In this document: positions 3,388-54,897 of the stretch, piece by piece
Layout of the letters: every line of letters starts with the position of its first letter
Numbering within the stretch: the stretch's first letter is position 1
DNA from: Candidatus Sungiibacteriota bacterium
GTDB taxonomy: Bacteria; Patescibacteriota; Minisyncoccia; Sungbacterales; JACQCQ01
Assembly (NCBI GenBank): GCA_016201505.1
Contig: JACQCQ010000013.1
Coordinates: forward strand, 80,830 to 144,829
Reading direction: 5' to 3'
DNA length: 64,000 nt
The notes under the pieces: generated by a model
Database searches by the model: none
The model's input: only the letters and a program-made list of their open reading frames with translations
What the model was told of the DNA's origin: nothing
Made by a program: the position numbers and the translations under genes

Positions 3388-5925
3388 TTATTTGAGCGGG
3401 CCGCCTTTGGACTTTAGCTCGGCTGCTTCTTTTAACTTCTCGCGCTCCATCGGCGGAAGGTAGCGGCGCAGAAACAGTGAATTCGTCACCACCGAGACCG
3501 AGGAGAATGCCATGGCAAACCCGGCAATCTCGGGGCGAAGCGAAGACTGCGAGAGATTCAGAAACGCCGACCCGGCCTTGCCCATCTTTGAGGCGAGGCG
3601 AACCACCCAGGGCGCGGCAGCGCCTCCGATGCGCGTCTGGGTGACAAACAGATGCAGGCCCCCAGCCACCGGAATGGCCACCACATTATATATGAACGCC
3701 CAGAAGAGATTCTGCCAGACCTTGTGGATGGTTTTACCCGAGAGCTGAATGGAAGTGACGACGTCGCGCAGATCATCTTTTACCAGCACCACCTGCCCGG
3801 TCTGCACCGCCACATCCGTGCCCGATCCGACGGCAATGCCGATATCGGCCTGCGCCAGTGCCGGCGAGTCGTTGATCCCGTCACCCACCATGGCGACCGT
3901 CTTGCCCTCGGCCTGCAATTTTTTGATGACCGCGGCTTTGTCTTGCGGCAGAACCTGGGCCATCGCGCGATCAATGCCAATCTCTTTGGCAATGGCCTCG
4001 GCCGTTCGCGGATTGTCGCCCGTAATCATTACAATTTCTTTGCCCATTTTTTTTAGGGCGAGAATCGCCTCTTTGGCGTGAGGCTTTAGGGTATCGGCCA
4101 TGGCAATAATCGCCTGAGCCTTCCCATCAACCGCCAGAAAGACGACGGTCTTGGCTTCGTTTTCGAGTTTTTCGGCCTCGGCGCGATGGGCTTCAATCGC
4201 CACATTCAACTGCTGCATATACGCCGAGTTGCCCAGCCTGACCTTCTTGCCCAAGACCGTGCCTTCAACGCCGAAGCCCGAAAGGGCTTTAAAATCTTTG
4301 ACCTCGGGCACCGCGCCTTTTTCTTTTTGCTTTTCAATGACCGCGCGCGACAAAGGATGCTCGGAGCCGGTTTCAACTCCGGCGGCCAGCGCCAAGGCCG
4401 CTTCGGCATCAGCACCGTTTATGGCCAGGAAGTTTGTGACGACGGGTTTTCCAATCGTCAGCGTTCCAGTTTTATCAAAGGCAATCAAGCTAATTTTATA
4501 AGCTTTTTCAAGCGCCTCGCCGCCCTTTAAGATAATGCCAAAGCGCGCCGCGCGGCCGATGCCGACAATGAGAGCCGTCGGCGTGGCGAGGCCCATGGCG
4601 CAGGGACAGGAGATGACCAGGACCGCAATGGCTTTAATCAGGGCCGCGCGAAACTGGCCGGGCACGAGAATAAAATACCAGGCAGAAAAGGTGACGACGG
4701 CAAGGACCACGACGGCCGGCACAAAATATTCTGAAATTTTATCGACTAAATCCTGAATCGGGGCGCGCGTGGCCTGGGCTTCTTCCACCATCTGAATAAT
4801 TTGGTAGAGCAGTGTTTCTTTGCCCACTTTGGTGGCTTTAAACTTAAAGAGGCCCTCCTGATTGATGGTGGCTCCGATCACCTCATCACCCGCGCCCTTG
4901 CCCACCGGAAATGATTCGCCGGTCACGACCTTCTCATCGATGTGGGTTTTCCCCTCGACGATGACGCCGTCAACCGGAATCTTCTCGCCGGGGCGCACCA
5001 CCACAACCTCGCCTTTTTGAATTTGATCGATCGGCACGGTTACTTCTTGGCCCGCGCGTATCACATGCGCTTCTTTGGCCTCCAATTTCAAAAGCTCCTT
5101 GATCGCGGCCGAGGCCCGGCCTCGGGCGACCGCTTCAAAGTGCCTGCCTAAGATGATAAAGAAGAGTAAGGCGGCGGATGATTCCCAGAAAGGATGGTCA
5201 ATGCCAAAAAACAGAAACCCGAACATCGAATAAAAATAAGCCGCCGAAGTGCCCAGCACGACCAGAACATCCATATTAGCCGAGCCGACGCGCACTGCCG
5301 TGATGGCATTTCTGTAGAATGGCCAGGCGATGACAAATTGGATGGGTGTTGCCAAGATCCAATAAATATAATTTAAATCAATGCGGAACGGCGGATGAGC
5401 GACATCCATAAAAATCGAGGCGATCAACTTCAGGGGTTGGGCTACAAACCAGAGCAAAAATTCAGCACTGTAGGCGCCGAAGCTCAAAACTTGCGAAATC
5501 ATCGAGGCGGCAGCCCCGGGTGATGCGTAGAGAGGCTGGGCCTGATTCAAAAAGTCGAACAGCTCATGCACATGCGGCAGATTAAACATGTGAATCAGCA
5601 TGTAGTAGACGATAATCGGGCCGGCCAAGAGAGCCGTGGCTTTGACGCGTCTCCTCGACTCCTCGATCTTGCGCGCTTCTACGGCCTCTTCTTCTTCAAC
5701 CGAGGCGCTCACTTCGTCGGGGCGTATGATGTCGTAGCCCAATTTGTGGACCAGCTCGTCGAGCCGCTCTAATTTGACTTTTGATTCATCGTATTCGATG
5801 GCTGTTTTTTCAGCGCCGTAGTTAGTTTTGACCGAAACCACGCCCAGCTCTTTTGCAACCAGCTTGTCAATTAAAATCGCGCATGAGGCGCAGTGCATTC
5901 CTTTGACTTTCAAAACTGTTTTCAT
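3388..5925 (-). CDS. copA: Copper-translocating P1B-type ATPase.
   Basis: N-terminal HMA (GMHCASCA); CPC transmembrane motif (SCPCAMGLATP); DKTGTLT phosphorylation site; GDGINDSPAL hinge. Confidence 0.95.
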   Translation of the reverse strand: MKTVLKVKGMHCASCAILIDKLVAKELGVVSVKTNYGAEKTAIEYDESKVKLERLDELVHKLGYDIIRPDEVSASVEEEEAVEARKIEESRRRVKATALLAGPIIVYYMLIHMFNLPHVHELFDFLNQAQPLYASPGAAASMISQVLSFGAYSAEFLLWFVAQPLKLIASIFMDVAHPPFRIDLNYIYWILATPIQFVIAWPFYRNAITAVRVGSANMDVLVVLGTSAAYFYSMFGFLFFGIDHPFWESSAALLFFIILGRHFEAVARGRASAAIKELLKLEAKEAHVIRAGQEVTVPIDQIQKGEVVVVRPGEKIPVDGVIVEGKTHIDEKVVTGESFPVGKGAGDEVIGATINQEGLFKFKATKVGKETLLYQIIQMVEEAQATRAPIQDLVDKISEYFVPAVVVLAVVTFSAWYFILVPGQFRAALIKAIAVLVISCPCAMGLATPTALIVGIGRAARFGIILKGGEALEKAYKISLIAFDKTGTLTIGKPVVTNFLAINGADAEAALALAAGVETGSEHPLSRAVIEKQKEKGAVPEVKDFKALSGFGVEGTVLGKKVRLGNSAYMQQLNVAIEAHRAEAEKLENEAKTVVFLAVDGKAQAIIAMADTLKPHAKEAILALKKMGKEIVMITGDNPRTAEAIAKEIGIDRAMAQVLPQDKAAVIKKLQAEGKTVAMVGDGINDSPALAQADIGIAVGSGTDVAVQTGQVVLVKDDLRDVVTSIQLSGKTIHKVWQNLFWAFIYNVVAIPVAGGLHLFVTQTRIGGAAAPWVVRLASKMGKAGSAFLNLSQSSLRPEIAGFAMAFSSVSVVTNSLFLRRYLPPMEREKLKEAAELKSKGGPLK

Positions 5926-5934
5926 ATGAGTGCG

Positions 5935-6363
5935 TTAACTTGAAGCTGGGACCACGTGTATGACCCCGACCATGTCAAAATGCGTCCGTTTTTTACCGTC
6001 GACAACTCCTTCGCCGCAGGGTACGGAGCAGTAAAAAGAAAAGTCGCCTTCTTGGGTCACCGTAAATTCAATCGTGATGGTTGAATTGGCCGGCATTCTT
6101 TGAGAGACGCCGTAGGCGTCAATCGCCAGGCCGTGATCATAATCGTCTTCGTTTACGACTGTGGCCACGATTTTGTCGCCGCGAATAACCGTGATTTGGT
6201 CGGGGAGAAAGCGCCACTGATTCTTTTTGGCGACAATCGTGACGGCTTTTACATTTCCGGTAATGACCGGGGCTTGACCTCTGGGCAAGATGAAATACCG
6301 ATAACCCATGCCGGCGACAAGTATCACGAGGCCGACAATGATTAAAATGAGATATTTATTCAT
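5935..6363 (-). CDS. Membrane-anchored cupredoxin-domain protein with CuA-like ligands.
   Basis: N-terminal TM helix; C-terminal FYCSVPCGEGVVDGKKRTHFDM (Cys-x3-Cys-Gly...His-x2-Met) resembling CuA/cupredoxin copper-site spacing. Confidence 0.6.
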   Translation of the reverse strand: MNKYLILIIVGLVILVAGMGYRYFILPRGQAPVITGNVKAVTIVAKKNQWRFLPDQITVIRGDKIVATVVNEDDYDHGLAIDAYGVSQRMPANSTITIEFTVTQEGDFSFYCSVPCGEGVVDGKKRTHFDMVGVIHVVPASS

Positions 6364-8509
6364 GAACTTTATCGGGTTTAATGCGCTTCGGCTCAAGATA
6401 GCGCTTGACCGCCCGCGCGAGCGCCACGATTAAGATAAGCGAGCCAATTAAATTCAGCCACCAGGGCGAAATCGGCAGTGTCGGCTTGTCGACCACCCTG
6501 ACCCAAAAGACAGCGGCGAGGGCCTCATCGGGCGGCAAATGAATGCCGGTCGGCCTAAACTGGGCAAAGACGCGATAAAGGCCCGACTCGGGAAAGGTTG
6601 CGGTAAAGTTGACGGTGTGGCCATAGCTGTCGGGGTGGGTGTGCACAAACTGCGACCAGTCATCTTTGATCATGGTCAAATGCATGGGGACTGTGAGGTA
6701 GTTTTCCAGCTCGACATCGGCCCCGGCAACCGTATGGACCTCGATTTGGAGGGTCGTGCTAATATTTTTGACGAAGGGATCAATACCGAGCATACCAACC
6801 TGATAGGTGCGACCGTCGGAATCGGCAACGAGAACCGTGCGCGAAAGATTTACATTTTTTTCATCAGTTGGTCCCGCCCCCCTGACCTCGATGACCGGCT
6901 CGCCAAAGACATGATCCACGCCGTCCTGTTGAATTTCAGACCAGATTTTATAGCGCCCGGGTTTTAGGAATGTATGTGTGATGGTCATGAGGCCGGTCGT
7001 GGTAGCCGCAGCAGCGGGGTGAATATGAAAGAATTCCGCCATGTCGGAACGCACGCCAATGACATGCATCAGCTTGCCATGGTTGTATTCCAGCTGCGAA
7101 ATAGGGATCGGCGAATTGGCCGGCTTTTGCGAGACGAAGAAACCAAGTTCTGCAGGTTCCCCGACACGTAGAGACGATGTGGCCTCGCAGGCGGCGCAGC
7201 CCGTACCTGCCAGTACTTTCATAATCGAGACCGGGCCGTCGGTTGTGGCCAAGGCATCGTGATAGGCTGTCGGGTTATGCGTGTGGCCGCTTCCGTTTGA
7301 GGTCATGGCGCCTGTATGCGTATCGGTCATCGATTCTTCATGCGTATGCGTCATGGCCTGATTTAAAAAGCGCTGCGGCAGGACGTTGATAAAAAGAACG
7401 GCGAGAAGCAGAGACAGAGTGATGAGAAACCAAAGCCGCAACGGCCGAACCCGGGTCTCAATTTTTTGTTCCTCGGGAGGAAGTTTCTCGGCCTGGGCTT
7501 TTTTCTTTTGGTAGTACCAAAAAAATGGCCAGACCCAAAGGAGTACCAAAGCCCAGTTTCCCAGCCAGAGCGGCTGGCCGAAAAGACCCGTTCCTGTCGG
7601 TATGCCGTGCGTGTGCGGGATGCCGCCTAAGTTGAATTGTTTGATCAAAAAGCCGAGAAAGCCCTCCTCCTGCGTAATACTCTCCAGGAGTGTGTGCTGG
7701 CCGGAGAAGACCCACCAGTCATGTGTAAACAAGCCGAGTATTAAAATAAAAGCGGCCACAAGGACCATCATCCAGCCGGTGGCTTTTTCGATTTTCTCTT
7801 TCCGCGAAACGAGCCAGGAGAGAGCGTTTGTGCCTAAGATGGCCAGCACCGCGAGAATTAAAAGCGGAATGACGCGGCCGATGGCATGGGTCAAAAATAA
7901 GGTCCAGCCGTAAAAGACATTGCCCGAAACCGCAATGCGGCCCAAGATCAGCGGGGTAGCCGGATGCGGGCAACCGACGCCGACGTTCCCCAAAAACAGT
8001 CCGAGAAGAAAGGCTTTGATGAAATCCTGCTGTTTTTGGATAAAGGCCGGCGCCGCACCACGGTAGGTTGGCATGTGAAAGTTAATCAGTCCAATCTCGC
8101 CCAGGGCAAAAAGATAGGCGAAGATGCCGGCGCCAAAGTACAGCCAATTTTTTACCAACTCAAGCGGAGCGCCCAAAGAGCCGATGGCCACCTTGCCGAG
8201 AAAGGCCGCGGCGATGCCGTACACCGAGAGCATCAAGGAAACTCCGAGACCAAAGGCGAGCGCAACCCCCAAACCTTTGAGCGGTCCCTTGCCCATGGAT
8301 AGCGGGACAATCACGAAGGCGAGCGGCAGGGTGCAGGGGAGCACAATCATGGTGAGCCCCATCACAAAACTGAAAATATACCAGCCGAGCCCGACGGAGT
8401 TTTGTCCCGCGCCGGCTACAATCACATACCCAACGCCAAAGAGGGCGAGAGCAATGAGACCAACCAGTACAGCGACGAGAATGAATTTAGCGCTCTCTCT
8501 GATGGCCAT
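6356..8509 (-). CDS. Fusion protein: CcdA/DsbD-type thiol-disulfide transporter TM domain plus a periplasmic His/Met-rich CxxC metal-binding domain plus a C-terminal TM anchor.
   Basis: CcdA-like motifs LPCTLPLAF and GVGCPHPATPLILG in TM helices. Downstream are MTHTHEESMTDTHTGAMTSNGSGHTHN and GTGCAACEATSS (CxxC) plus many His residues. The gene sits in the copper cluster. Confidence 0.7.
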   Translation of the reverse strand: MAIRESAKFILVAVLVGLIALALFGVGYVIVAGAGQNSVGLGWYIFSFVMGLTMIVLPCTLPLAFVIVPLSMGKGPLKGLGVALAFGLGVSLMLSVYGIAAAFLGKVAIGSLGAPLELVKNWLYFGAGIFAYLFALGEIGLINFHMPTYRGAAPAFIQKQQDFIKAFLLGLFLGNVGVGCPHPATPLILGRIAVSGNVFYGWTLFLTHAIGRVIPLLILAVLAILGTNALSWLVSRKEKIEKATGWMMVLVAAFILILGLFTHDWWVFSGQHTLLESITQEEGFLGFLIKQFNLGGIPHTHGIPTGTGLFGQPLWLGNWALVLLWVWPFFWYYQKKKAQAEKLPPEEQKIETRVRPLRLWFLITLSLLLAVLFINVLPQRFLNQAMTHTHEESMTDTHTGAMTSNGSGHTHNPTAYHDALATTDGPVSIMKVLAGTGCAACEATSSLRVGEPAELGFFVSQKPANSPIPISQLEYNHGKLMHVIGVRSDMAEFFHIHPAAAATTTGLMTITHTFLKPGRYKIWSEIQQDGVDHVFGEPVIEVRGAGPTDEKNVNLSRTVLVADSDGRTYQVGMLGIDPFVKNISTTLQIEVHTVAGADVELENYLTVPMHLTMIKDDWSQFVHTHPDSYGHTVNFTATFPESGLYRVFAQFRPTGIHLPPDEALAAVFWVRVVDKPTLPISPWWLNLIGSLILIVALARAVKRYLEPKRIKPDKVHE

Positions 8510-8510
8510 A

Positions 8511-8888
8511 TTATTGTCGTGACGATAACACAACTAAACTCACTGCAGCGCCCAAAAGGCCGATGTCGCGAAAGGTGATAAGATCAACACCGAAGAGCAG
8601 CAAAATCCCCGCCATCTCAAGCGCTGACAAGGTCGCCACCATCGTGACCCAGCGCCGCGGCAGAAAAGGAATAATTAAGACGAGAGCAAAGAGTAACTCC
8701 CCGACTCCCTGAATTTTAACAAATGACGCTGTAGTCAGTAGCGGGGCGACGGCCGACTTCAGCCAAAAGGGAATAAAGTTCGTCCAGCTTTTGGGATGTA
8801 CGAAAAGATCGAATCCGGAATAGACATACATCGCACCGAGACTCAAGCGCAGAACCCATTCCGGATTTATTTTTTTTAAAAGTGCCAT
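8511..8888 (-). CDS. DoxX-family membrane protein.
   Basis: Four hydrophobic helices; DoxX-like pattern (YVYSGFDLF...IPFWL...ELLFALVLIIP). Confidence 0.6.
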   Translation of the reverse strand: MALLKKINPEWVLRLSLGAMYVYSGFDLFVHPKSWTNFIPFWLKSAVAPLLTTASFVKIQGVGELLFALVLIIPFLPRRWVTMVATLSALEMAGILLLFGVDLITFRDIGLLGAAVSLVVLSSRQ

Positions 8889-8901: not shown

Positions 8902-9168
8902 TTATTCGCCCGAGAGTTCTTTAAGTCTTGCGAGAAACTTCGTCTTATCAAATCCGCCTGTCGCCCAGAGCTCGCCGTTCAACAAAATGCCGGGCGAAGC
9001 AAAAATCATGTGTTTTTGGGCGAGCGCCTGCCCTTCGGGTGTGATCACCGACGTGTTTTTGTAGGTCACAGCCGGCCAGTCCTTTTCAATGGAATGCCAA
9101 AACGCCTCAAAGGCCTGGCAATGTGAACAACCGGGCGAAGAAAGCTCTTCTAGAGCAATGTGCTGCAT
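8902..9168 (-). CDS. Thioredoxin-fold protein with a CxxC active site.
   Basis: SSPGCSHCQAF motif; about 90 aa thioredoxin-like length. Confidence 0.6.
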   Translation of the reverse strand: MQHIALEELSSPGCSHCQAFEAFWHSIEKDWPAVTYKNTSVITPEGQALAQKHMIFASPGILLNGELWATGGFDKTKFLARLKELSGE

Positions 9169-9374
9169 GCGATAGACTTCACTACTCACAAGTATACCAC
9201 CCAAAATTGACCCAAAAGCTCGGTCTGTGGACTAACTTTTGGGCTAACGTCAAAATCGGCCCTTATGGGCTCGCCGGCAGAACTTATTTTTGCCGTCATG
9301 ACTGGGCTGAAACGGCAAACTTCGCAGATAAAAGAAAAACGTCCGCCTAGGAACGTTCTTTCTGCATCAACGCA

Positions 9375-10325
9375 TCACTTCTCCACTTCAGCCGCCGGGC
9401 TCCGGCGCTGCATCCCCAAGATATAGTTATAGGCCGAAAGCGCCGCCTTGACCGCATCGCCCACCGAGATGTTATTTTGTTTGTAAATTTCGTCGGTGAC
9501 GTCACCAGCGGCATAAATCCCGAGCTTCGAAGTTGTACCAGTTTTATGATCAATCAGAACTTCCCCAAACGGATTCATCTCGACTAGGCCTTTTGCAATG
9601 TCTGAATTTGGCACCGCGCCAATTTCGACAAAGACCCCTTCCACTGCGAGCTCTTTTTCCTCACCGGTTTTGGCGTCTTTATACTTCAACCCCCTGACAA
9701 AATCGGCGCCCAAAACCTCTTGCGTTAAAGCATCATAAATAATTTCAACTTTGGAATTTGCCCGCACCTCATCTTGCGTGACCGGGTCTCCTTTCAGACT
9801 GTCGGAGCGCACCAAGAGATAAATTTTTGAGGCATAGGGCGTCAGATCCACGACCGCCTCAAGTCCCGCGTTCCCGCCGCCAACCACCGCCACCTTCTTT
9901 TCTGGAAAAAGCGGCGCATCGCAGGTGGCGCAAAAAACTACGCCCTTGCCTTCAAATTTGGCCTCGCCGGGAACACCGAGTCTTCTCCTGCGGCTGCCGG
10001 AGGCGAGGATAATTGTCTTGGTCTCAAAAGACTTCCCCCCATCGGTTTCCACCAGAAATCCGCCAGCAATTTCTGAAATTTTATTGGCGAGTTCGCCTGA
10101 AACAACTTCGAGTCCCTTTTGCGCCCGAATATGCCGCTCCAGTTTTTGGGTTAAATCAAAGCCGGTGAGCAATTCATCCCCAATCCAATTTTCGATCGAA
10201 GCCGACACCGCCGACTGCCCGCCAAACTCTTTAGCAATCAAAACGGACTTTAATTTTTTTCGCGCGACATAGACTGCAGCCCCTGCCGCTGCTGGTCCGC
10301 CGCCGATGATTACCACGTCATACAT
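9375..10325 (-). CDS. trxB: Thioredoxin reductase.
   Basis: VVIIGGGPAA FAD motif; redox-active CATCDA motif; second NAD(P)-binding motif VAVVGGGNAG. Confidence 0.9.
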   Translation of the reverse strand: MYDVVIIGGGPAAAGAAVYVARKKLKSVLIAKEFGGQSAVSASIENWIGDELLTGFDLTQKLERHIRAQKGLEVVSGELANKISEIAGGFLVETDGGKSFETKTIILASGSRRRRLGVPGEAKFEGKGVVFCATCDAPLFPEKKVAVVGGGNAGLEAVVDLTPYASKIYLLVRSDSLKGDPVTQDEVRANSKVEIIYDALTQEVLGADFVRGLKYKDAKTGEEKELAVEGVFVEIGAVPNSDIAKGLVEMNPFGEVLIDHKTGTTSKLGIYAAGDVTDEIYKQNNISVGDAVKAALSAYNYILGMQRRSPAAEVEK

Positions 10326-11047: not shown

Positions 11048-11782
11048 TTACTTTGCCGCTTCAAGAGCCGCCTCAATCGCGGCTTTAAATTGTGCGTAGG
11101 GCTGGGCGCCGGAAATCCCGATGCCGTTTACAAAAGTGAAGGGCGTACCGTTCACGCCCAGCCGCGTACCCGCCCCGACTTCTTTGGCGATCGCCTCGGC
11201 GTACTTGCCCGAATCGAGACAATCATTGAATTTGGCCTGATCAAGCCCGATGTTTTTTGCCCACAGCTTCAGATTGGCAATTGAAAGATCGGGCTGGTTT
11301 TGAAAAATCGCATCGTGCATTTGCCAGAACTTGTTCTCTTCTTTGGCGCATTGGCCGGCTTCTGCGGCTTTTTCGGCCATGGGATGAATACTGGAAAGGG
11401 GAAAATCACGATAGACGAATTTCACTTTACCCGTGCGCACATAATCGCGGACCAAGCCCGGCTCGACCGACTGGAAAAATTGTTCGCAAAACGGACACTG
11501 GAAATCTGAAAACTCAACGACCGCGACTTTGGCGTTCGGATCACCAAGTATGGGATCGTCACTGGCGTAATAGGCCGCGGTGTCGGGAGAAGTATTTTTT
11601 GTGTCGCGCTTCAATGACGGAGCGCCGTTTGAATAAAGCACCGCGAGCGCAATGATAACGCCTGCCGCAATAATCGATCCGGGTATCAAATAATTCGTTT
11701 GGCCATCGGGGGCTTTTATTTCTTCGTCCATAGGCGGAAAAAATGAAGCTCGCGGCGTAGCCGCGAACATCTTGCATTTCAT
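11048..11782 (-). CDS. DsbA-family thiol:disulfide oxidoreductase, membrane-anchored. The start is uncertain.
   Basis: FSDFQCPFCEQF thioredoxin-like CxxC motif; N-terminal TM helix; DsbA-like length. Confidence 0.7.
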   Translation of the reverse strand: MKCKMFAATPRASFFPPMDEEIKAPDGQTNYLIPGSIIAAGVIIALAVLYSNGAPSLKRDTKNTSPDTAAYYASDDPILGDPNAKVAVVEFSDFQCPFCEQFFQSVEPGLVRDYVRTGKVKFVYRDFPLSSIHPMAEKAAEAGQCAKEENKFWQMHDAIFQNQPDLSIANLKLWAKNIGLDQAKFNDCLDSGKYAEAIAKEVGAGTRLGVNGTPFTFVNGIGISGAQPYAQFKAAIEAALEAAK

Positions 11783-12064
11783 CCTGATGAACTCATGCAA
11801 GATACAGCGCCTGCCGGCAGGCAGGGAATCCCCGCCTGCCATCTGCCTGTCACACGAGCTTAGGAAAGTGTGAGGATATAGAGTGTTCTGGCGATATATG
11901 GCGGAGTCTTATGACACAGGCACTGGCGGGCAGGCGCCAAAGCATCCGCATCTCGACTCAGCGGGCGATCATCGCTGTTTTTGAGTAAATATTTAAATGC
12001 GCTAAAAGCCTCCTGGCGGCGGCGGAGCTTCCCCATCATACGGGAAGTTCTAGTCGCTGGCAAA

Positions 12065-49259: not shown

Positions 49260-50735
49260 TTGGCAATTGTACGGCTTTTAGCTAGAGTTCTCGATATGAG
49301 GAAAACAACCCGTCGAGCCGTTTTTTATTTGTTTAGCGGGCTTTTTTTGATCACAACACCTTTGATCGTATTCTATGCCTTCGGTTATTCATTTGATTTC
49401 CAAAACGGTGTCGTGGTGCCTACCGGTGGCGTATTTGTGAAAGCCAACGTTGGCGCGATTCGCGTTTTGGCGAATGGAAAGCTCATGAAAGAAACAAATT
49501 TTTTAACTAAGGGCGCATTGATATCCGGCCTCTCGTCGGGCCATGTCGAAGTAGAGGTAGCGAAAGACGGATACATTCCTTGGAGAAAACCAGTCGGTAT
49601 CGAAGAGCAAGTTATTCAAGAATACCGCTCGATTCTTCTTGTACCCGAGGCCTTGCCGGCTGATCTCGTATACGGTACTACGAGCCAGGCGTCTTCAAGA
49701 CAGACTGTTTCTCTCGAGCTTTTGCCCGATCCAACGGGGAATTTCATTTTTTGGGCCGCAAAAAAAAGAAACTTAACCCGGCTACGCGTGATCAGTCGCG
49801 ATGGGGTTGAAACGCGGGCTCAAATCTCCCTGGAACCAGGCGAATCGTATCTTTCTGCCTCTTGGAATCCCAGCGGTAACGTAGTACTCGTTTCAACCAA
49901 CCGGCGTGGGCATACGATCTGGCGCGCTTTATCGGCTAATTCAAAATCCGTCCTACCGGTGTTTGATGAAAAAACTATTTTGCGTACGAGCACCTCAACC
50001 AGATCGGAAACCATCTCTGAAGCCTCGCTTAGCTTGATCACCTGGTCGCCGGCTGATATTGATGAATTTCTTGTGCTGGCAAACGGCGCGATTTACCGCT
50101 GGAATTTAAGCTCCGGGCTAGTCAAAAAAATTATTTCGAGTGCCAGATCGTTTGCCCGATTTAATGGAAATATCCTCTATTCAACTCAAAGCGGATTTAT
50201 TGCCACTGCCGATCTATCCGGCGAACATATAGAATCGCTGGATCATCCGGGTCTTTACGTTGCAAAAAGTCCGCTCCGCTATTTTCAAAATAAAGACGGC
50301 GTTTTGGCTTTGATCGACTCTGCCGGGGGACTTTATCTAGAAAACCCGAGCACAAGAAAATTCTCCCCCCTGACAACCGAGATCCATGAAGCTGAATTTT
50401 CCTCCAACACCGCCGAACTTGGCTACACCCAATCCGGCACATTCTCAACCATTGCTCTCGCTGATGAGACAACCCAGCCGTTCCGCAGAATGTACACCAA
50501 GTCGGCCATATTCACGACTGACGAAATTCTCCATTTTATATGGCTCGGCAATCCAGCAGCTCATATTGTCTATACGACCGCGCGGGGCGTATTTCTGGCG
50601 GAAACCGATCCGCGTCCGGGCGCAAATATCGTGCCGCTCCGCCGCGGAGACTACCAGATTGTCGAATCTCCCAACGACCCAAACAGTTTTTATTTCTCGG
50701 ACGGAGAAATTATTGAACGACTGACGATACGATAA
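49260..50735 (+). CDS. Membrane-anchored hypothetical protein with a PEGA-like domain and a beta-propeller-like C-terminal region.
   Basis: N-terminal TM helix. SGHVEVEVAKDGYIPWRKPV PEGA-like motif. Repetitive beta-rich C-terminus. Confidence 0.5.
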   Translation: MAIVRLLARVLDMRKTTRRAVFYLFSGLFLITTPLIVFYAFGYSFDFQNGVVVPTGGVFVKANVGAIRVLANGKLMKETNFLTKGALISGLSSGHVEVEVAKDGYIPWRKPVGIEEQVIQEYRSILLVPEALPADLVYGTTSQASSRQTVSLELLPDPTGNFIFWAAKKRNLTRLRVISRDGVETRAQISLEPGESYLSASWNPSGNVVLVSTNRRGHTIWRALSANSKSVLPVFDEKTILRTSTSTRSETISEASLSLITWSPADIDEFLVLANGAIYRWNLSSGLVKKIISSARSFARFNGNILYSTQSGFIATADLSGEHIESLDHPGLYVAKSPLRYFQNKDGVLALIDSAGGLYLENPSTRKFSPLTTEIHEAEFSSNTAELGYTQSGTFSTIALADETTQPFRRMYTKSAIFTTDEILHFIWLGNPAAHIVYTTARGVFLAETDPRPGANIVPLRRGDYQIVESPNDPNSFYFSDGEIIERLTIR

Positions 50736-50822: not shown

Positions 50823-51776
50823 CTACGGAAAGAATCTGCGATAGGGAGCCGAAATGATAGAACCGAATGTGGCGAGAAAGACCACCGCGACAACGAGCCA
50901 GCCGATAAAAGGAATAATTTTAAGAATTTGATAGAGCAGGACACCGATGACGATGGTTTGCCAGGAGATGTGACTCTCGCCTTTTTTATACCACAAAGAG
51001 ACATACCGGCCGAGTAAAATCGCCGCCACCGCCGATGAGACCACGATAGTTACGATATAAAGCAGAAGCCCGATCACGCCAATTGGTATGCCGATAATGG
51101 TGACAAAGGCAACGACAACCAGAATTGGAATACCAATCAAGCCAAGAAGTCCGCGAAGAATTTCTTTGCCAAAATTCGTCTCGGCCGCATGCACCACCTG
51201 CGATACCCAGGGGCCAAAGAAGTACCAAACAAGAAAGGCTAAAACAATGCCCATCAACGTTTTCATCACCCACCAAAAGCCAATAACGCCGAGGAGTCCC
51301 CCCGCGTGATTCTCGCCCGGTTTACGCGTATATTGTTTTACTGTTCCATGAACGACGCCCTGATTTTGAATATCACCGCCCGCCAGCAATAAATCCCCGC
51401 CGATGACAGCCCCCGGCAAAATTTTTACTCTCCCACCGGCCGCCAAAACATCGCCTTTCACTTGGCCCGCAATCGTCACCTCACCGCCCGCCACCCGCAG
51501 GCTATCGCCGACATTGCCCGAAATATTAATCGTCCCGCCGGCCAGCATGGCGCTTTTAGCGACATTCCCATTTACATTTACATTCCCGCCGGCCGCCGTC
51601 AGATCGCCGTTTATGTTGCCTTCAATGTTCAATGTCCCGCCGGCAATATAGAGATTGCTGTTGACTGATGCGCCTTTAGGCAGTAAATACTGATCGCCCG
51701 AATAAAATTCAGCGGCGAGCGAGACAAGCGGCACCAAAAGACCGAGGGCCGAAATGAGAATTAAGAGTTTTTTCAT
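50823..51776 (-). CDS. Bactofilin-like beta-helix repeat domain fused to a C-terminal multi-TM domain, adjacent to mreB.
   Basis: Signal/TM N-terminus. Repeats AGGTLNIEGNINGDLTAAGGNVNVNGNVAKSAMLAGGTINISGNVGDSLRVAGGEVTIAGQVKGDVLAAGGRVKI match the bactofilin (DUF583) pattern. Then about 5 TM helices. Confidence 0.55.
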   Translation of the reverse strand: MKKLLILISALGLLVPLVSLAAEFYSGDQYLLPKGASVNSNLYIAGGTLNIEGNINGDLTAAGGNVNVNGNVAKSAMLAGGTINISGNVGDSLRVAGGEVTIAGQVKGDVLAAGGRVKILPGAVIGGDLLLAGGDIQNQGVVHGTVKQYTRKPGENHAGGLLGVIGFWWVMKTLMGIVLAFLVWYFFGPWVSQVVHAAETNFGKEILRGLLGLIGIPILVVVAFVTIIGIPIGVIGLLLYIVTIVVSSAVAAILLGRYVSLWYKKGESHISWQTIVIGVLLYQILKIIPFIGWLVVAVVFLATFGSIISAPYRRFFP

Positions 51777-51850
51777 ATCAATTTCAACATACCATTTCTT
51801 TACCTTTCGTCCCACTTTGGGTGATAAATAATCCTGGTTTGATTTGCCGA

Positions 51851-52699
51851 TCAAAAACTACGCGCGGGCTGCTGGATTTGGGATTCTGCCCTAAACGCCC
51901 GATGAGCGCTTACCGAAGAATTTATTTGTTCGGGTCTCGCCTGCTTGATAATGACAGCCTGTCCTGTCGGGAGCCGAATGACTGGTTCATGATACCTGCG
52001 GCTGAACTCTTCAACGGCTTTATAGGCCCCGGGCCAGGACATAAATCCATAATCATCACAGACCATTACTCCGCCCGCTACGAGGCGAGGGTAGAAGTAT
52101 GCGAAAGCCGCCAGGGTGGGTTGGTAGAGATCCAAATCGACATGCACAAACAGATACTGCCTCTCGGGGACGTGCGCAAAGCTATCCGGTATCCAACCTT
52201 TATGGTACTCAATAAAATCGAAATCCTTCAGACTTTCTCGGACATCCTCTAGCGAATAGGCCATGCGGCCGCCGTCACTGCCGATTTTACTTGCGGGTAA
52301 TGATTTTTCGATGTCAAACTCGCTCGTAACATCTTCTTTCGTTCTAGCAGAGAGTCCTTGGAAGGAGTCGAACGCGTATATCTTATGCCTCCCGCCTTTT
52401 AGCACCGAACATAATTGAAATAGGGTAGTACCTCTGGCAATTCCCGCCTCCACAAAGTTCTGTTCCGGGTAGTTATGAAACCTCTGGCTGACATACGATG
52501 CGAGTTGAATCAAAGTATAGTTACGCACTTTGCTGGGGAAAAAATCTCCCTTATGAGTGGCTTTCAACGAATCTTGATATATCTCGTGGAACTTCTGGTC
52601 GTTTAACCAAAGATACCGCGGCTGATTGTTGAGACTCTGGGCGAGACGCATGACTTCATAGCCAAAATAGTTCGCAATTCGCCTGATTATTTTTCTCAT
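51851..52699 (-). CDS. TylF/MycF-family class I SAM-dependent O-methyltransferase.
   Basis: VEAGIARGTTL, IYAFDSFQGL, HVDLDLYQPT, GGVMVCDDYG: the macrocin-O-methyltransferase family pattern. Confidence 0.7.
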   Translation of the reverse strand: MRKIIRRIANYFGYEVMRLAQSLNNQPRYLWLNDQKFHEIYQDSLKATHKGDFFPSKVRNYTLIQLASYVSQRFHNYPEQNFVEAGIARGTTLFQLCSVLKGGRHKIYAFDSFQGLSARTKEDVTSEFDIEKSLPASKIGSDGGRMAYSLEDVRESLKDFDFIEYHKGWIPDSFAHVPERQYLFVHVDLDLYQPTLAAFAYFYPRLVAGGVMVCDDYGFMSWPGAYKAVEEFSRRYHEPVIRLPTGQAVIIKQARPEQINSSVSAHRAFRAESQIQQPARSF

Positions 52700-52726: not shown

Positions 52727-54067
52727 TCAGTTATTATCAAAATTTGACGCGGGGAAGTTCTCTCCATGATCCATCTCATCTTGAGACTGGGCCGAAGATC
52801 CCCCGCTCGATGTATTAAGCTGCTCGGCGGGAGACGTCAGTGGAACGAGACCCGTTGCCTGAACGCAGGCTATGATTTTCCCCTTCATGTCGGCTGTTGG
52901 TTGGAACGCGCCCTTGGCGTATTGATTGACAGCATCCGCGCCAAAAAGCTTAGAGATGCAGGCGAGTGGATTAAAATCAATTTTTTGCGGCATCATGCCA
53001 TGAGAACTCTCAGACCCTCCATACATATTTTTATTCTTTTCGGCCGATACTTTTTGAAAACAATCGCCGACTTTATGCCCCAGCTCGGAGTCTTTCATAA
53101 CCTGACCTGTTTCTACTTCACCCAGTTCATCCGGGGAGAGCGAATCCTTAAGGCAAGCCATTACATCGGACGGCAATTGAAACTTGGAAGAACCGCCTCG
53201 GCCCATGGGGCTCTCATGCATCATGTTGTGTTGTTCTTTTGAAAAATTCGCGCAGGTCGCCTTGTTTTCCGGCTGACTGCAAAATTGATGACATGACTCT
53301 GGCGAGTCGCATCCCCCCGGCCCCTTCATGTCTTCACTCCTAAAGTTCTTCTCCTCTTCATCCGTGATGAGTCCGGCTTTTTTGGCAAACTGGATGCATT
53401 CATCTTGATGCGCGGGGTCCTGGCAGTATGGCATGCACTCCTCTTTTGACTTGCAGCCGCCTGGAGTTTCGCCCGTCTTTATCAATTCAATAAACTTCTT
53501 GGCGCGCTGAATCTCGCTTGCATCCATTAAGCCATTCTGTTCGGCAAATGAGAGACACGCGTCCGCATGTGCCGGATCGTTGCAATACGCGCGGCAGGCG
53601 GTCTCCCCCCGGCAGCCGCCCGGCCCAATTCTTTGCGCGTCGAGTTTTGATTTGAACTTTTCAATTTTCTGAATTTCGTCCTGGCCGATTAGATTGTGCG
53701 CTTTCGCAAACGCCAAACACTCATCGCGATGTCCGGCATCAGAACAATATGCCCCGCAGGCTGATTTTGAAGTGCACCCGCCAGGTCCGCCATTTTTTAT
53801 CGCTTCCTCGATCTTCGACTGATTATCGGTTCTTCTGGGTGCGAGTCCATGAGACTCGGCATAACTTTGGCAGGCTTCGGCATTAGCCGCGACGTCGCAA
53901 AACGCTTTGCATTCGGCCATCGAGCCGCAATTGCCCAATTCGGCAATCGGAAACTTTATATCAAACGGATTAGCCGATAAGGCAAAATGCGAAAACAAAA
54001 CAGCTCCGATAATGATGAGGCATGTAAGCAGCGCCGGATGGCGGAAAGAAGTCATATTACTTTCCAA
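52727..54067 (-). CDS. Secreted Cys-rich tandem-repeat protein: five about 45-aa repeats, each GPGGC-x5-C-x3-C-x6-C with His/Asp-rich spacing.
   Basis: Signal peptide. The five repeats are:
- [34 protein letters not shown]
- [33 protein letters not shown]
- [32 protein letters not shown]
- [27 protein letters not shown]
- plus an N-terminal copy. Confidence 0.6.
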
Positions 54068-54317
54068 AGGGATTCTTATATGAATCTTGGAATGGATTCA
54101 CTGTTTTTTCATAGGGATTGGTCGCCGGAACTTTGTTGCCGATTGAGGAGGAGGCGCGAATGTTTATTCTGATGTTCTCGTTGGGAGTTGCTCTCGCAGC
54201 CGGCCCTTGATTAAAGATGCTCTCCTTCCAGTCCGGCCCCAAAGTTTTATATATGAAAAAAGCGGCAGCCAAAATGACGATAACGGTGATTAGGGCAATC
54301 ATGTATTTCATAGACAC
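54057..54317 (-). CDS. Small membrane-anchored protein (86 aa), probably co-transcribed with the Cys-rich protein.
   Basis: N-terminal TM helix [18 protein letters not shown]. 11-nt overlap with the downstream gene start. Confidence 0.4.
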
Positions 54318-54438
54318 TCTCTATTATAGATCCTGCAAAAAAGCCGTAAATACGCCTTTATAAACAATCACTTTTTAGACGTCTCAAATTTTTATTCTAA
54401 CTTTCTTAAGAACTTGAGAATGTTATTTTTACGCTGGT

Positions 54439-54897
54439 CTAAATTTTCTGCCAGCCGATGACGGGATGAAGTTCCCACCAGTTATGAAAGGTATCAAACC
54501 GGACAATGCCCCAGATTTTGATGCGATCGCCGGCTGTGGGTAGCGGCAAGTTTTTAATTTCAGGAATAAATTCAGTAACAAGCAACGACTCGTCCGGTGC
54601 CTTGATTACGACATGAAAGTCTCCGTCGGGTTGCGGGGCGATGATATTGACGACGCCCTCGACTGTAACTTTTGTCTTCTTGCTGCCGTGCGTAATGAAG
54701 GTGGCAAGATCAGTATCGTAATAGAGCAGGTCATCATCCTCCGTTTCACCTTGCTGGACAGAATAAGAAAGGGTTCGTTCTACAATTTTGGGAATTAAAG
54801 CCCGTGGATTTAATGTTTGGGATCGAATATAAAAACCAAACCCGATGCCCGCGCCCAAGACAACCAGAAACTTTACCGCCCAAAGCCATCGCGTCAT
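54439..54897 (-). CDS. Membrane-anchored hypothetical protein (152 aa).
   Basis: N-terminal TM helix, then a soluble beta-rich domain. Flanked by degenerate copies of the 50771 terminator palindrome. Confidence 0.5.
   Translation of the reverse strand: MTRWLWAVKFLVVLGAGIGFGFYIRSQTLNPRALIPKIVERTLSYSVQQGETEDDDLLYYDTDLATFITHGSKKTKVTVEGVVNIIAPQPDGDFHVVIKAPDESLLVTEFIPEIKNLPLPTAGDRIKIWGIVRFDTFHNWWELHPVIGWQKI

Follow-up and report, generated by a model that had tools for sequence, protein, structure and literature searches.

The question raised by this locus is what a protein built from tandem cysteine-rich repeats does in Candidatus Sungbacteria, and whether the small membrane protein encoded next to it belongs to the same system. 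The Patescibacteria (CPR) account for a large part of bacterial diversity; their genomes are tiny, and for most proteins specific to their lineages no function has been assigned. The DNA analysed here is a stretch of 64,000 nucleotides from a Candidatus Sungiibacteriota contig (JACQCQ010000013.1, positions 80,830 to 144,829), which we call the window.

Gene structure and repeat anatomy

The window contains an open reading frame at 52727..54067 on the reverse strand that, read from the ATG at position 54055, encodes 442 amino acids. This product is 100% identical to P0001, a protein from an NCBI MAG annotated as [quoted passage not shown]. The original prediction of a secreted protein with five tandem cysteine-rich repeats holds: the 442-aa frame starts with a signal peptide, probably cleaved at about residue 27/28, and contains five matches to C-x5-C-x3-C-x8-C starting at Cys 43, 94, 148, 201 and 249 (442-aa numbering; Table 1). 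Shuffling the protein sequence 100,000 times never produced two or more matches. A family definition of at least three tandem units of 48–56 aa with this spacing, with [YF] before C3 and F-A three residues past C4, applies to the window protein with its five units. Some details had to be corrected. The last spacer is x8 and not x6 (the example given at the time, YC.DP.H.DEC, itself implies x8), the repeat period is 48–54 aa and not about 45 aa, and the GPGGC motif, thought to be present in every repeat, is found in repeats 2, 3 and 5 but reads TPGGC in repeat 4 and LGNC in repeat 1.

The repeats of the window protein are 18–49% identical to each other. TRF found no tandem repeat at the DNA level, thus the array is old; a recent expansion is rejected both by this result and by the terminal repeats, which are positionally orthologous between the species compared. 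Repeat 1 has the highest identity of all units to its positional counterpart in relatives, and its residues P36, L40 and C43 are invariant in alignment A1. Its cap motif, [FY]P[IV]xELGxC after the signal peptide, is present in the window protein and in 81 of 83 family proteins.

Downstream of the five repeats four further cysteines are located in two C-terminal modules with identical Cys-x30-Cys spacing, the first of which is kept in many relatives as APPEV.xCLxx..G....G..xxCFE. The protein ends in a polar disordered tail, whereas 55 of 83 relatives carry a hydrophobic C-terminal tail (..LLGxILxPFxxIFR). Since the window protein lacks it, this tail is a common feature of the family but not a defining one.

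The AF2 models are all-alpha and confident for the repeats, with a pLDDT of about 88–94 in the full model and of 79 in a two-repeat model, and with three helices per unit. Helix 1 carries the pair C2-x3-C3, helix 2 carries C4 and the GPGG loop carries C1, and the stretch D-P-x-[H/N]..E-E-C forms the start of helix 2. Because the pTM is 0.49–0.50 and the pLDDT of the linker helix is lower, a rigid rod is not established by these models and the units could also be arranged like beads on a string.

Table 1. Features of the two-gene locus (window coordinates)
Feature	Position	Strand	Basis or remarks
Promoter-like site TTTACG-16 nt-TATAAT, 10/12	54323..54350	-	directly upstream of the small ORF; consensus scan and sequence reading, a consensus match alone (5 sites in the region, 4.8 expected)
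Small partner gene, bitopic membrane protein with C-terminal NPx-repeat tail	54057..54317	-	ORF; alignments A2, A6
Predicted transmembrane helix of the partner	54249..54305	-	sequence reading
Partner tail, 20 aa, three NP[FY] motifs, the last near the C-terminus	54060..54119	-	family comparison
Repeat protein CDS	52727..54055	-	442 aa from ATG; stop codon 52727-52729
Predicted Sec-type signal peptide without twin-arginine motif	53972..54055	-	sequence reading; helix at residues 7-25 in model
Repeat 1, N-terminal cap (FPIAELGNC...)	53795..53944	-	most conserved unit of the family
Repeat 2	53642..53791	-	AF2 pLDDT about 87-93, three helices
Repeat 3	53480..53629	-	motif match; AF2 models
Repeat 4	53321..53470	-	motif match; AF2 model
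Repeat 5, terminal and most divergent unit	53177..53326	-	motif match; AF2 model
C-terminal 2-Cys helical module 1	53021..53170	-	Cys 301/332; pLDDT 80-94
C-terminal 2-Cys helical module 2	52856..52975	-	Cys 366/397; pLDDT 82-88
Disordered S/G/Q/D/N-rich C-terminal tail	52730..52849	-	pLDDT below 50, residues 403-442

A small membrane protein with an NPF tail is encoded directly upstream

A small membrane-anchored partner had been predicted to follow the repeat gene with an overlap of 11 nucleotides. The partner gene is present and conserved, but in the direction of transcription it lies upstream of the repeat gene, and the overlap of 11 nucleotides is obtained with TTG 54067 as start codon, whereas with the ATG used by NCBI the junction is TAA-T-ATG. 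The small protein has 86 aa if translated from GTG 54317 and, more likely, 84 aa if translated from ATG 54311. In all 83 partner relatives a hydrophobic segment follows an N-terminal stretch of about six amino acids; read from the sequence, the topology would be N-in/C-out, with residues ~22–84 predicted to be extracellular. The members of the partner family contain two to five NP[FLYV] motifs with a modal spacing of 8 aa, forming an octapeptide repeat with the pattern x-N-P-[F/L/Y]-x-x-x-x (tail peptides of TNPFEKVKTNPFE type), and they usually end with ..NPF followed by E, Q or K. Pfam and NCBIfam gave no match for the partner, and a profile search returned 594 relatives of about 80–100 aa.

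A homologous small ORF is located directly upstream on the same strand at 84 of 88 repeat-gene loci, with a junction of -11 to +10 nt in most of them, and the window locus shows the same arrangement with its small bitopic NP[FLY]-repeat ORF. In the reverse direction, all three partner homologues looked up have a Cys protein with six repeats 1–6 nt downstream. Very divergent lineages keep the two genes next to each other, with stop and start codons that overlap or abut, while every other neighbour changes, and such adjacency is the classic signature of subunits of one complex. In addition, partners with more NPx motifs tend to go with proteins that have more Cys repeats (r = 0.49, n = 83, without phylogenetic correction). 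On account of the gene coupling and this modest correlation we infer that the NPF tail of the partner binds the repeats. It might also be that the two genes are merely co-transcribed, with the repeat protein being released as a soluble exoprotein and the small protein having a function of its own, for instance as a peptide associated with the membrane or the wall. The lack of an anchor of its own in the window repeat protein would fit such an arrangement, as would the search for Rosetta-stone evidence, in which none of 203 proteins proved to be a natural fusion of NPF tail and repeats; the near-universal adjacency and the correlated repeat numbers make it very unlikely nevertheless.

The partner is the only conserved neighbour: no Pfam family is common to more than three of 72 neighbours, and no blast cluster exceeds six members. 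The flanking genes are housekeeping genes, with r-proteins and rpoA in the window and dnaKJ, secDF and RF-1 at other loci.

The repeat defines a large family in Patescibacteria

The repeat was found in other CPR proteomes, where the original prediction had proposed to look for it. The repeat profile matches 1,796 clusters (50% identity), and the labelled relatives are nearly all Patescibacteria (CPR) MAGs; the family profile comes from 731 repeat units. The top homologues of the window protein have E values of 1e-130 to 1e-78. Loci in the genomes of relatives were found by a contig search with a single-repeat alignment, and a single peptide pattern matches at least 219 loci in species-representative genomes. 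Identity within the family is 30–45% across many candidate phyla, and all aligned relatives have an N-terminal hydrophobic segment equivalent to the signal peptide of the window protein. Some relatives carry additional modules, namely an N-terminal domain or C-terminal Kazal domains (PF00050/PF07648; P0006 is an example), the latter being absent from the window protein. Judged by their sequences, the window protein and its partner represent a large uncharacterised domain family that is almost confined to Patescibacteria.

Comparison with known families

The statement that the protein belongs to no recognised family was borne out. Pfam yielded only sub-threshold noise (E values of 0.16 and 0.93) and NCBIfam nothing at E<=1; phmmer and profile hmmsearch against PDB sequences gave no match to the repeat protein, nor did a fold search of solved structures. 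Sequence-profile, profile-versus-PDB and fold searches, which together approximate HHpred, thus did not place the repeat confidently in a known family. Pfam tags on relatives (PF25052, PF20787, PF22798, PF01934 and DUF2680) were re-scanned and judged spurious, since they are marginal, short and mutually inconsistent. A Kazal-type serine protease inhibitor identity was rejected as well: the repeat itself is not a Kazal domain, and Kazal domains, which are disulfide-rich and extracellular, are fused to the array as separate domains in some relatives.

Several known helical modules resemble the repeat in part. Helicobacter cysteine-rich proteins (Hcp) and Sel1-like repeats (PF08238) are exported bacterial tandem alpha-helical repeats with a disulfide per repeat that form an elongated solenoid. 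However, no Sel1 match was found at E<=1, and the Sel1-like unit has about 36 aa, two helices and one disulfide, whereas the unit here has 48–54 aa (about 50), three helices and four cysteines; in addition, Hcp proteins have no NPF partner. CHCH/twin-Cx9C proteins and alpha-hairpinins (with two disulfides) share with the repeat the helix-loop-helix arrangement with cysteines on facing surfaces, and C1 and C3 of the repeat are nine residues apart as in twin-Cx9C. The EH domain of eukaryotic endocytosis, a small helical module that binds Asn-Pro-Phe peptides, is a functional analogy to an NPF-binding role but an analogy only: the domain is a pair of EF-hands in the cytosol, it lacks disulfides, and it has no similarity to the repeat in sequence or fold.

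The repeat protein might also be a surface adhesin, a host-interaction protein or the scaffold of a secreted effector or inhibitor, with repeats that bind a ligand on the host cell or a host protease and a partner that serves as anchor only. The presumed episymbiotic life of CPR bacteria, the attachment role proposed for Cys-rich proteins of Peribacteria (below) and the Kazal protease-inhibitor domains of some relatives would suit this possibility, as would a marginal match of two relatives to the defensin-like family PF25052 (AtDEF-like; 26.7–30.2 bits, cutoff 25). The window protein has neither feature, the PF25052 match spans the signal peptide and repeat 1, and a defensin would have a cysteine-stabilised alpha/beta fold while the models here are all-alpha; a defensin identity was therefore rejected. 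A full-text literature search on the GPGGC motif and on Cys-rich surface proteins of CPR, Parcubacteria or Patescibacteria found no description of the family, only the large cysteine-rich extracellular proteins of Peribacteria, which have a signal peptide and have been proposed to act at the surface as attachment factors (Anantharaman et al. 2016, PMC4736985). These are different proteins, with an average of 1,655 aa, a 14-gene cluster and a weak resemblance to Myxococcus Cys-rich repeats and pappalysin (PMC4736985); the family described here, for which the NPF partner is the defining feature, has 360–1,500 aa and another motif and occurs mainly in Parcubacteria-type lineages. The high conservation across candidate phyla with an invariant cap motif, the positional orthology of the terminal repeats and the housekeeping contexts, which have no signature of mobile or variable loci, are what one expects of a conserved component with a structural role and not of an effector that evolves fast, and we consider an adhesin or effector role clearly improbable.

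Disulfides or metal ligands

The four cysteines of the repeat are strictly conserved: not one is substituted in 1,502 repeat instances, and all 1,474 complete instances contain all four. The connectivity of possible disulfides can therefore not be inferred from correlated Cys loss. Circumstantial evidence favours disulfides over a Cys4 metal site, since the signal is of Sec type without a twin-arginine motif, the Cys count is even in 72 of 83 relatives, the same proteins also contain 2-Cys modules and Kazal domains, and the window encodes a DsbA-like protein that is anchored in the membrane and has a CPFC site (PF13462 1.4e-36, PF01323 6.5e-24). A DsbD_TM-like protein is encoded in the window as well.

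Alternatively, the four cysteines of each repeat, with or without the Asp and His of D-P-x-H, could hold one thiophilic ion (Zn, Cu, Fe or another), so that the protein would bind or buffer metal outside the cytoplasm, acting at the cell surface as a multi-site store, as a chaperone or as a sensor. The absolute all-or-none conservation of four clustered cysteines, which are never lost singly or in pairs, is equally expected of a Cys4 metal site. Also, one helical turn separates C2 from C3, and the elements next to them contribute C1 and C4, a geometry in which all four could converge on one site. Many of the host organisms are from anoxic groundwater, a counterpoint to disulfides, and the reducing habitats of many hosts would be compatible with metal binding. 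The gene of the closest homologue, P0116, directly precedes genes for a ZIP metal permease and a YibE/F protein, but such an adjacency was rejected as a general feature, since a metal transporter is found in only one of 72 downstream neighbours. We know of no knuckle-type Cys4 motif with the spacing C-x5-C-x3-C-x8-C. The 2-Cys modules of the window protein cannot form a Cys4 site and, together with the Kazal domains in polypeptides of this family, imply oxidative folding. The DsbA-like protein encoded on the same contig also speaks against metal sites, and a signal of Sec type that lacks a Tat motif makes clusters assembled before export less likely.

The conserved His and Asp had been suggested as metal ligands, a suggestion that was weakened by the family comparison: in the 731 units the His position is H in 48% and N in 48%, and the Asp position is D in just 49% (N in 19%), so that neither can be an obligate ligand. 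In the models, the stretch that contains them fits a helix N-cap better than a set of ligands. Taken together, metal binding seems rather unlikely to us, and we proceed with disulfides.

A model for the cassette

With moderate confidence we propose that the repeat protein is a Sec-exported, disulfide-stapled rod of three-helix repeats that works with the NPF-tail anchor protein in the envelope. The cassette consists of two genes, is probably bicistronic and is characteristic of Patescibacteria of the Parcubacteria/Paceibacteria type. Gene 1 would encode a bitopic protein of ~84 aa with an extracytoplasmic tail of octapeptide repeats ending in ..NPF, and gene 2, translationally coupled to gene 1, would yield a mature product that is a string of ~50-residue three-helix units. 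After export, the membrane-anchored DsbA-like oxidoreductase might introduce two disulfides per unit by oxidising its four cysteines, with C1-C3 plus C2-C4 or C1-C2 plus C3-C4 as candidate pairings; a C2-C3 bond is sterically excluded because both residues are located on one helix. Stapled in this way, the units would be rigid mini-bundles and the array an elongated, protease-resistant rod.

The repeat protein is probably a component of the cell envelope, and probably tethered by its partner: the rod may be held at the cell surface by binding to the NPF-repeat tail, and many relatives have a C-terminal hydrophobic tail of their own in addition. There it might provide the envelope with a structural or spacing scaffold and in relatives also bear the Kazal or N-terminal domain. 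More tentatively, we put forward the possibility that each xNPFxxxx octapeptide is gripped by one disulfide-stapled repeat, which would be a new, sortase-independent mode of surface anchoring used mainly by CPR.

If such gripping of octapeptides takes place, it would constitute a new recognition code between a peptide repeat and a helical repeat, and it would give the envelope of ultra-small cells a rod of defined length on which Kazal or N-terminal modules are shown outward or to a host. If the cysteines bind metal instead, the repeat would be a new extracytoplasmic metal-handling repeat. NPF-tail binding provides a testable hypothesis for the attachment of proteins to the CPR cell surface. 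The repeat is a well-defined domain that can be curated, with its partner, as a new Pfam-type family, and as a small and probably very stable disulfide-locked helical module it should appeal to structural biologists and protein engineers. Since the cassette is widespread, strongly constrained and located among housekeeping genes, it likely belongs to the basic biology of the envelope in CPR bacteria.

Anatomy of the cassette

The ORF listing places two closely packed ORFs on the minus strand of window 52727-54317 (see table). Read from its ATG, the repeat gene encodes a 442-aa protein with 100% identity to the NCBI MAG entry 'hypothetical protein HY220_04310 [Candidatus Sungbacteria bacterium]' and with an N-terminal hydrophobic signal without a twin-arginine motif. 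The original prediction of five tandem Cys repeats was confirmed: C-x5-C-x3-C-x8-C matches five times (first Cys at residues 43, 94, 148, 201 and 249), whereas none of 100,000 shuffled versions reaches two or more matches. Two details of that prediction were miscounts: the last spacer is x8 and not x6, as its own example string implies, and the period is not about 45 aa but 48-54 aa (51, 54, 53 and 48 aa along the protein). The five repeats are 18-49% identical. In its DNA the gene shows no tandem repetition, thus the array is ancient. Located 3' of it, a helical Cys-x30-Cys module occurs twice and contributes four more Cys, and the C-terminal 40 residues form a polar tail predicted to be disordered. 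The predicted mature N-terminus starts with NPF, the tripeptide that is also repeated in the partner tail; [NSDK]PF is found just ahead of the motif of the cap (repeat 1) in 14 of 83 relatives.

The small membrane ORF had been described as following the repeat gene with an 11-nt overlap. In transcription order it comes first, and the overlap exists with the TTG start but not with the ATG, where the junction is TAA-T-ATG; the overlap is therefore a product of choosing the longest ORF. Directly 5' of the small ORF lies a promoter-like TTTACG-16-TATAAT, a consensus match only, and such sites are no more numerous across the region than in shuffled sequence.

Features of the cassette, its surroundings and selected homologues (window positions unless a locus is named)
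Feature	Position	Strand	Remarks
Repeat gene, longest ORF	TTG at 54067	-	446 aa
Repeat gene, ATG start	ATG at 54055	-	442 aa
Residues 7-9 after ATG	54029-54037		listed beside the mature N-terminus
Predicted mature N-terminus	about 53945-53971		NPFDIKFPI
Small upstream ORF (partner)	54057-54317	-	86 aa from GTG, or 84 aa from ATG at 54311
Flanking ORF	54439-54897	-	152 aa, N-terminal TM segment, no Pfam match
Flanking ORF	49260-50735	+	491 aa, N-terminal TM segment, no Pfam match
343-aa protein and TylF-like O-methyltransferase	50823-51854, 51851-52699	-	methyltransferase (PF05711, 2.7e-18) directly 3' of repeat gene; 4-nt overlap; 343-aa protein with bactofilin-like beta-solenoid repeats and several C-terminal TM helices; neither conserved at other loci
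DsbA-like thioredoxin, membrane-anchored	11048-11842	-	CPFC; PF13462 1.4e-36, PF01323 6.5e-24
DsbD_TM/CcdA-like domain protein	6356-8533	-	725 aa
Small thioredoxin-like protein (CSHC) and thioredoxin-reductase-like flavoprotein	8902-9204, 9375-10325	-	same thiol-redox cluster
HMA-domain P-type ATPase (CopA-like) and small cupredoxin-like membrane protein	3388-5925, 5935-6396	-	adjoin thiol-redox cluster
Hydrophobic C-terminal tail, examples	L088:3417-5336, L089:3757-5223, L090:3777-5654		also homologues P0008, P0039, P0054
N-terminal domain of about 120 aa	L030:3173-3760, L045:3326-3900, L064:3053-3600		also loci L047, L049-L052, L076
Closest homologue P0116 (45% identity)	L001:7277-9116		repeat gene, then ZIP permease and YibE/F membrane protein; divergent RND efflux pump precedes

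A discrete family of four-Cys repeat proteins

A word-indexed search retrieved 762 relatives at E<=1e-3, and a profile run exhaustively against 1.84 billion cluster representatives gave 1,796 matches at E<=1e-3, 1,485 at <=1e-10 and 972 at <=1e-30, which marks the family as discrete, with hardly any twilight zone. Typical members have 450-770 aa and 5-10 repeats. A single peptide pattern run over the GTDB species representatives gave 219 confirmed loci. The repeat was thus present in other CPR proteomes, where it had been suggested to look: nearly all of the 80 listed loci are from Patescibacteria/CPR MAGs (Kaiser-, Azam-, Sung-, Harrison-, Taylor-, Wildermuth-, Lipton-, Giovannoni-, Colwell- and Terrybacteria, Paceibacterota, and TPA bins labelled Saccharibacteria); apart from these there are several bins labelled no further than 'bacterium' and one bin each for 'Gammaproteobacteria' and Saganbacteria. 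The latter two copies (L056, CAYIMZ010000009.1; L073, WPAF01000061.1) and a homologue labelled 'archaeon' (P0043) are probably mis-binned CPR contigs.

The consensus of 731 units is G-P-G-G-C-[KR]-[SG]-x-E-E-C-x-A-[YF]-C-x-D-P-x-[H/N]-x-E-E-C-x-x-F-A-E-x-x-G-[LF]-[IM]. A unit HMM found 1,502 instances in 203 family proteins; each of the 1,474 complete ones retains all four Cys, the remainder being truncated alignments. Cap and last repeat show positional orthology across species. Relatives may carry additional parts. In 55 of 83, a long P/Q/E-rich spacer precedes a hydrophobic or amphipathic C-terminal tail of 15-20 aa closing with a basic residue (..SLLGIILxPFxxIFR), which looks like an anchor or sorting signal and which the window protein lacks. 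Some end in a Kazal domain, and a subset has a probably beta-rich domain of about 120 aa before the cap ('SVSLxKxxxGLFTLTIxDPDGIxxFSL'), for which no Pfam match was found at E<=1.

That the protein belongs to no recognised family was borne out by the sequence, profile and fold searches, none of which placed it with confidence in a known one: Pfam gave sub-threshold noise only, NCBIfam nothing at E<=1, and neither phmmer with the protein nor hmmsearch with a two-repeat profile (72 sequences) matched a PDB chain at E<=10. On re-scanning, the marginal Pfam tags precomputed for a few relatives proved inconsistent, and none applies to the window protein, including the defensin-like PF25052, which spans signal peptide and repeat 1. 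AlphaFold2 modelled the repeats confidently, the full-length protein with a mean pLDDT of 77.5 (repeat blocks about 87-94) and a two-repeat fragment with 79. In these models each unit has three helices: a short helix 1 bearing C2-x3-C3, helix 2 with C4 in its second turn and the F-A-x-x-x-G-L motif, and helix 3 as a longer linker. Foldseek against the PDB gave a best E of 0.47 with TM below 0.16, and full-text literature searches returned no description of the repeat or its partner.

An obligate membrane partner

The small ORF, already suspected to be a partner, is an obligate companion of the repeat gene, being located directly 5' on the same strand in 84 of the 88 loci examined, window included (median 88 aa); in the other four, upstream DNA seems to be missing or the gene model seems truncated or atypical. 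The junction is overlapping or abutting in most loci (-11 to +10 nt). Partners consist of a short N-terminal stretch, a transmembrane helix and a tail with 2-5 NP[F/L/Y/V] motifs, modally 8 residues apart and usually ending in ..NPF-E/Q/K. This family has 594 relatives, without Pfam assignment and named 'hypothetical' or spuriously, and in three of three long-contig members a six-repeat Cys protein is encoded 1-6 nt downstream. Apart from the partner, no neighbouring gene is conserved: the commonest Pfam family turns up three times at most in 72 downstream neighbours, and the neighbours on both sides fall into blast clusters of six at most. The surroundings are housekeeping genes, rpoA-rplQ-rplM-rpsI upstream in the window and dnaKJ, secDF or RF-1 elsewhere.

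Disulfides or metal

Disulfide stapling of the repeats is well ahead of metal binding, if not beyond doubt. It is favoured by the Sec-type signal, by the even Cys count in 72 of 83 relatives, by the 2-Cys modules in the same polypeptides, since these cannot form a Cys4 site, and by the Kazal domains of some relatives. The DsbA-like and DsbD_TM-like proteins encoded in the window argue in the same direction, and the thiol-redox cluster bears on whether this organism is able to oxidise the cysteines it exports. With one helical turn between them, C2 and C3 cannot form a bond; pairing would thus be C1-C3/C2-C4 or C1-C2/C3-C4. A Cys4 metal-binding repeat would fit the four clustered Cys, kept all-or-none, the reducing habitats of many hosts and the suggestive ZIP and YibE/F neighbours of P0116. 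However, this adjacency occurs in only one of 72 loci, and the His and Asp first proposed as ligands are not conserved (His 48%, Asn 48%; Asp 49%, Asn 19%). Metal binding is rather unlikely. In the models, D-P-x-[H/N]-x-E-E-C starts helix 2 and, by established helix-capping rules, looks like an N-cap box.

Proposed role

The build of the two proteins, their distribution and the pairing of their genes are shown. We infer that the two products bind each other in an extracytoplasmic complex, in which the repeat protein, once exported and oxidised, would be a disulfide-locked rod of three-helix repeats that the bitopic partner keeps at the membrane through its NPF-repeat tail. In the envelope of Patescibacteria such a rod could act as a scaffold, structural or as a spacer, bearing extra modules in relatives (Kazal, N-terminal domain, hydrophobic tail); we give this tethered scaffold about an even chance. 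The window protein, having no anchor of its own, would depend most on the partner. NPx motif and Cys repeat counts correlate with r = 0.49 (n = 83, without phylogenetic correction), and a search of 203 family proteins gave no natural fusion of the pair. That the proteins are co-transcribed without interacting seems very improbable, and an adhesin, effector or inhibitor scaffold is a distinctly unlikely role.

Most alike in working to this proposed rod are the disulfide-stapled helical repeats of Helicobacter Hcp/Sel1-like proteins and the helix hairpins of CHCH and alpha-hairpinin proteins, but the repeat protein differs from them in every comparison that could be run (unit length, helix number, Cys pattern, Pfam, fold). 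EH-domain/NPF recognition is a functional analogy only. Peribacteria are reported to have Cys-rich proteins outside the cell as well (PMC4736985), with the theme in common but not the architecture.

The feature is real and well delimited, a member of a large, uncurated and unstudied family that is nearly restricted to CPR bacteria. It would belong to a known kind, the disulfide-rich helical repeat surface proteins; new are the four-Cys three-helix repeat of about 50 aa and its obligate NPF-repeat membrane partner. With their function still inferred, the family and its partner are well suited to curation and to a simple experiment on binding and structure.
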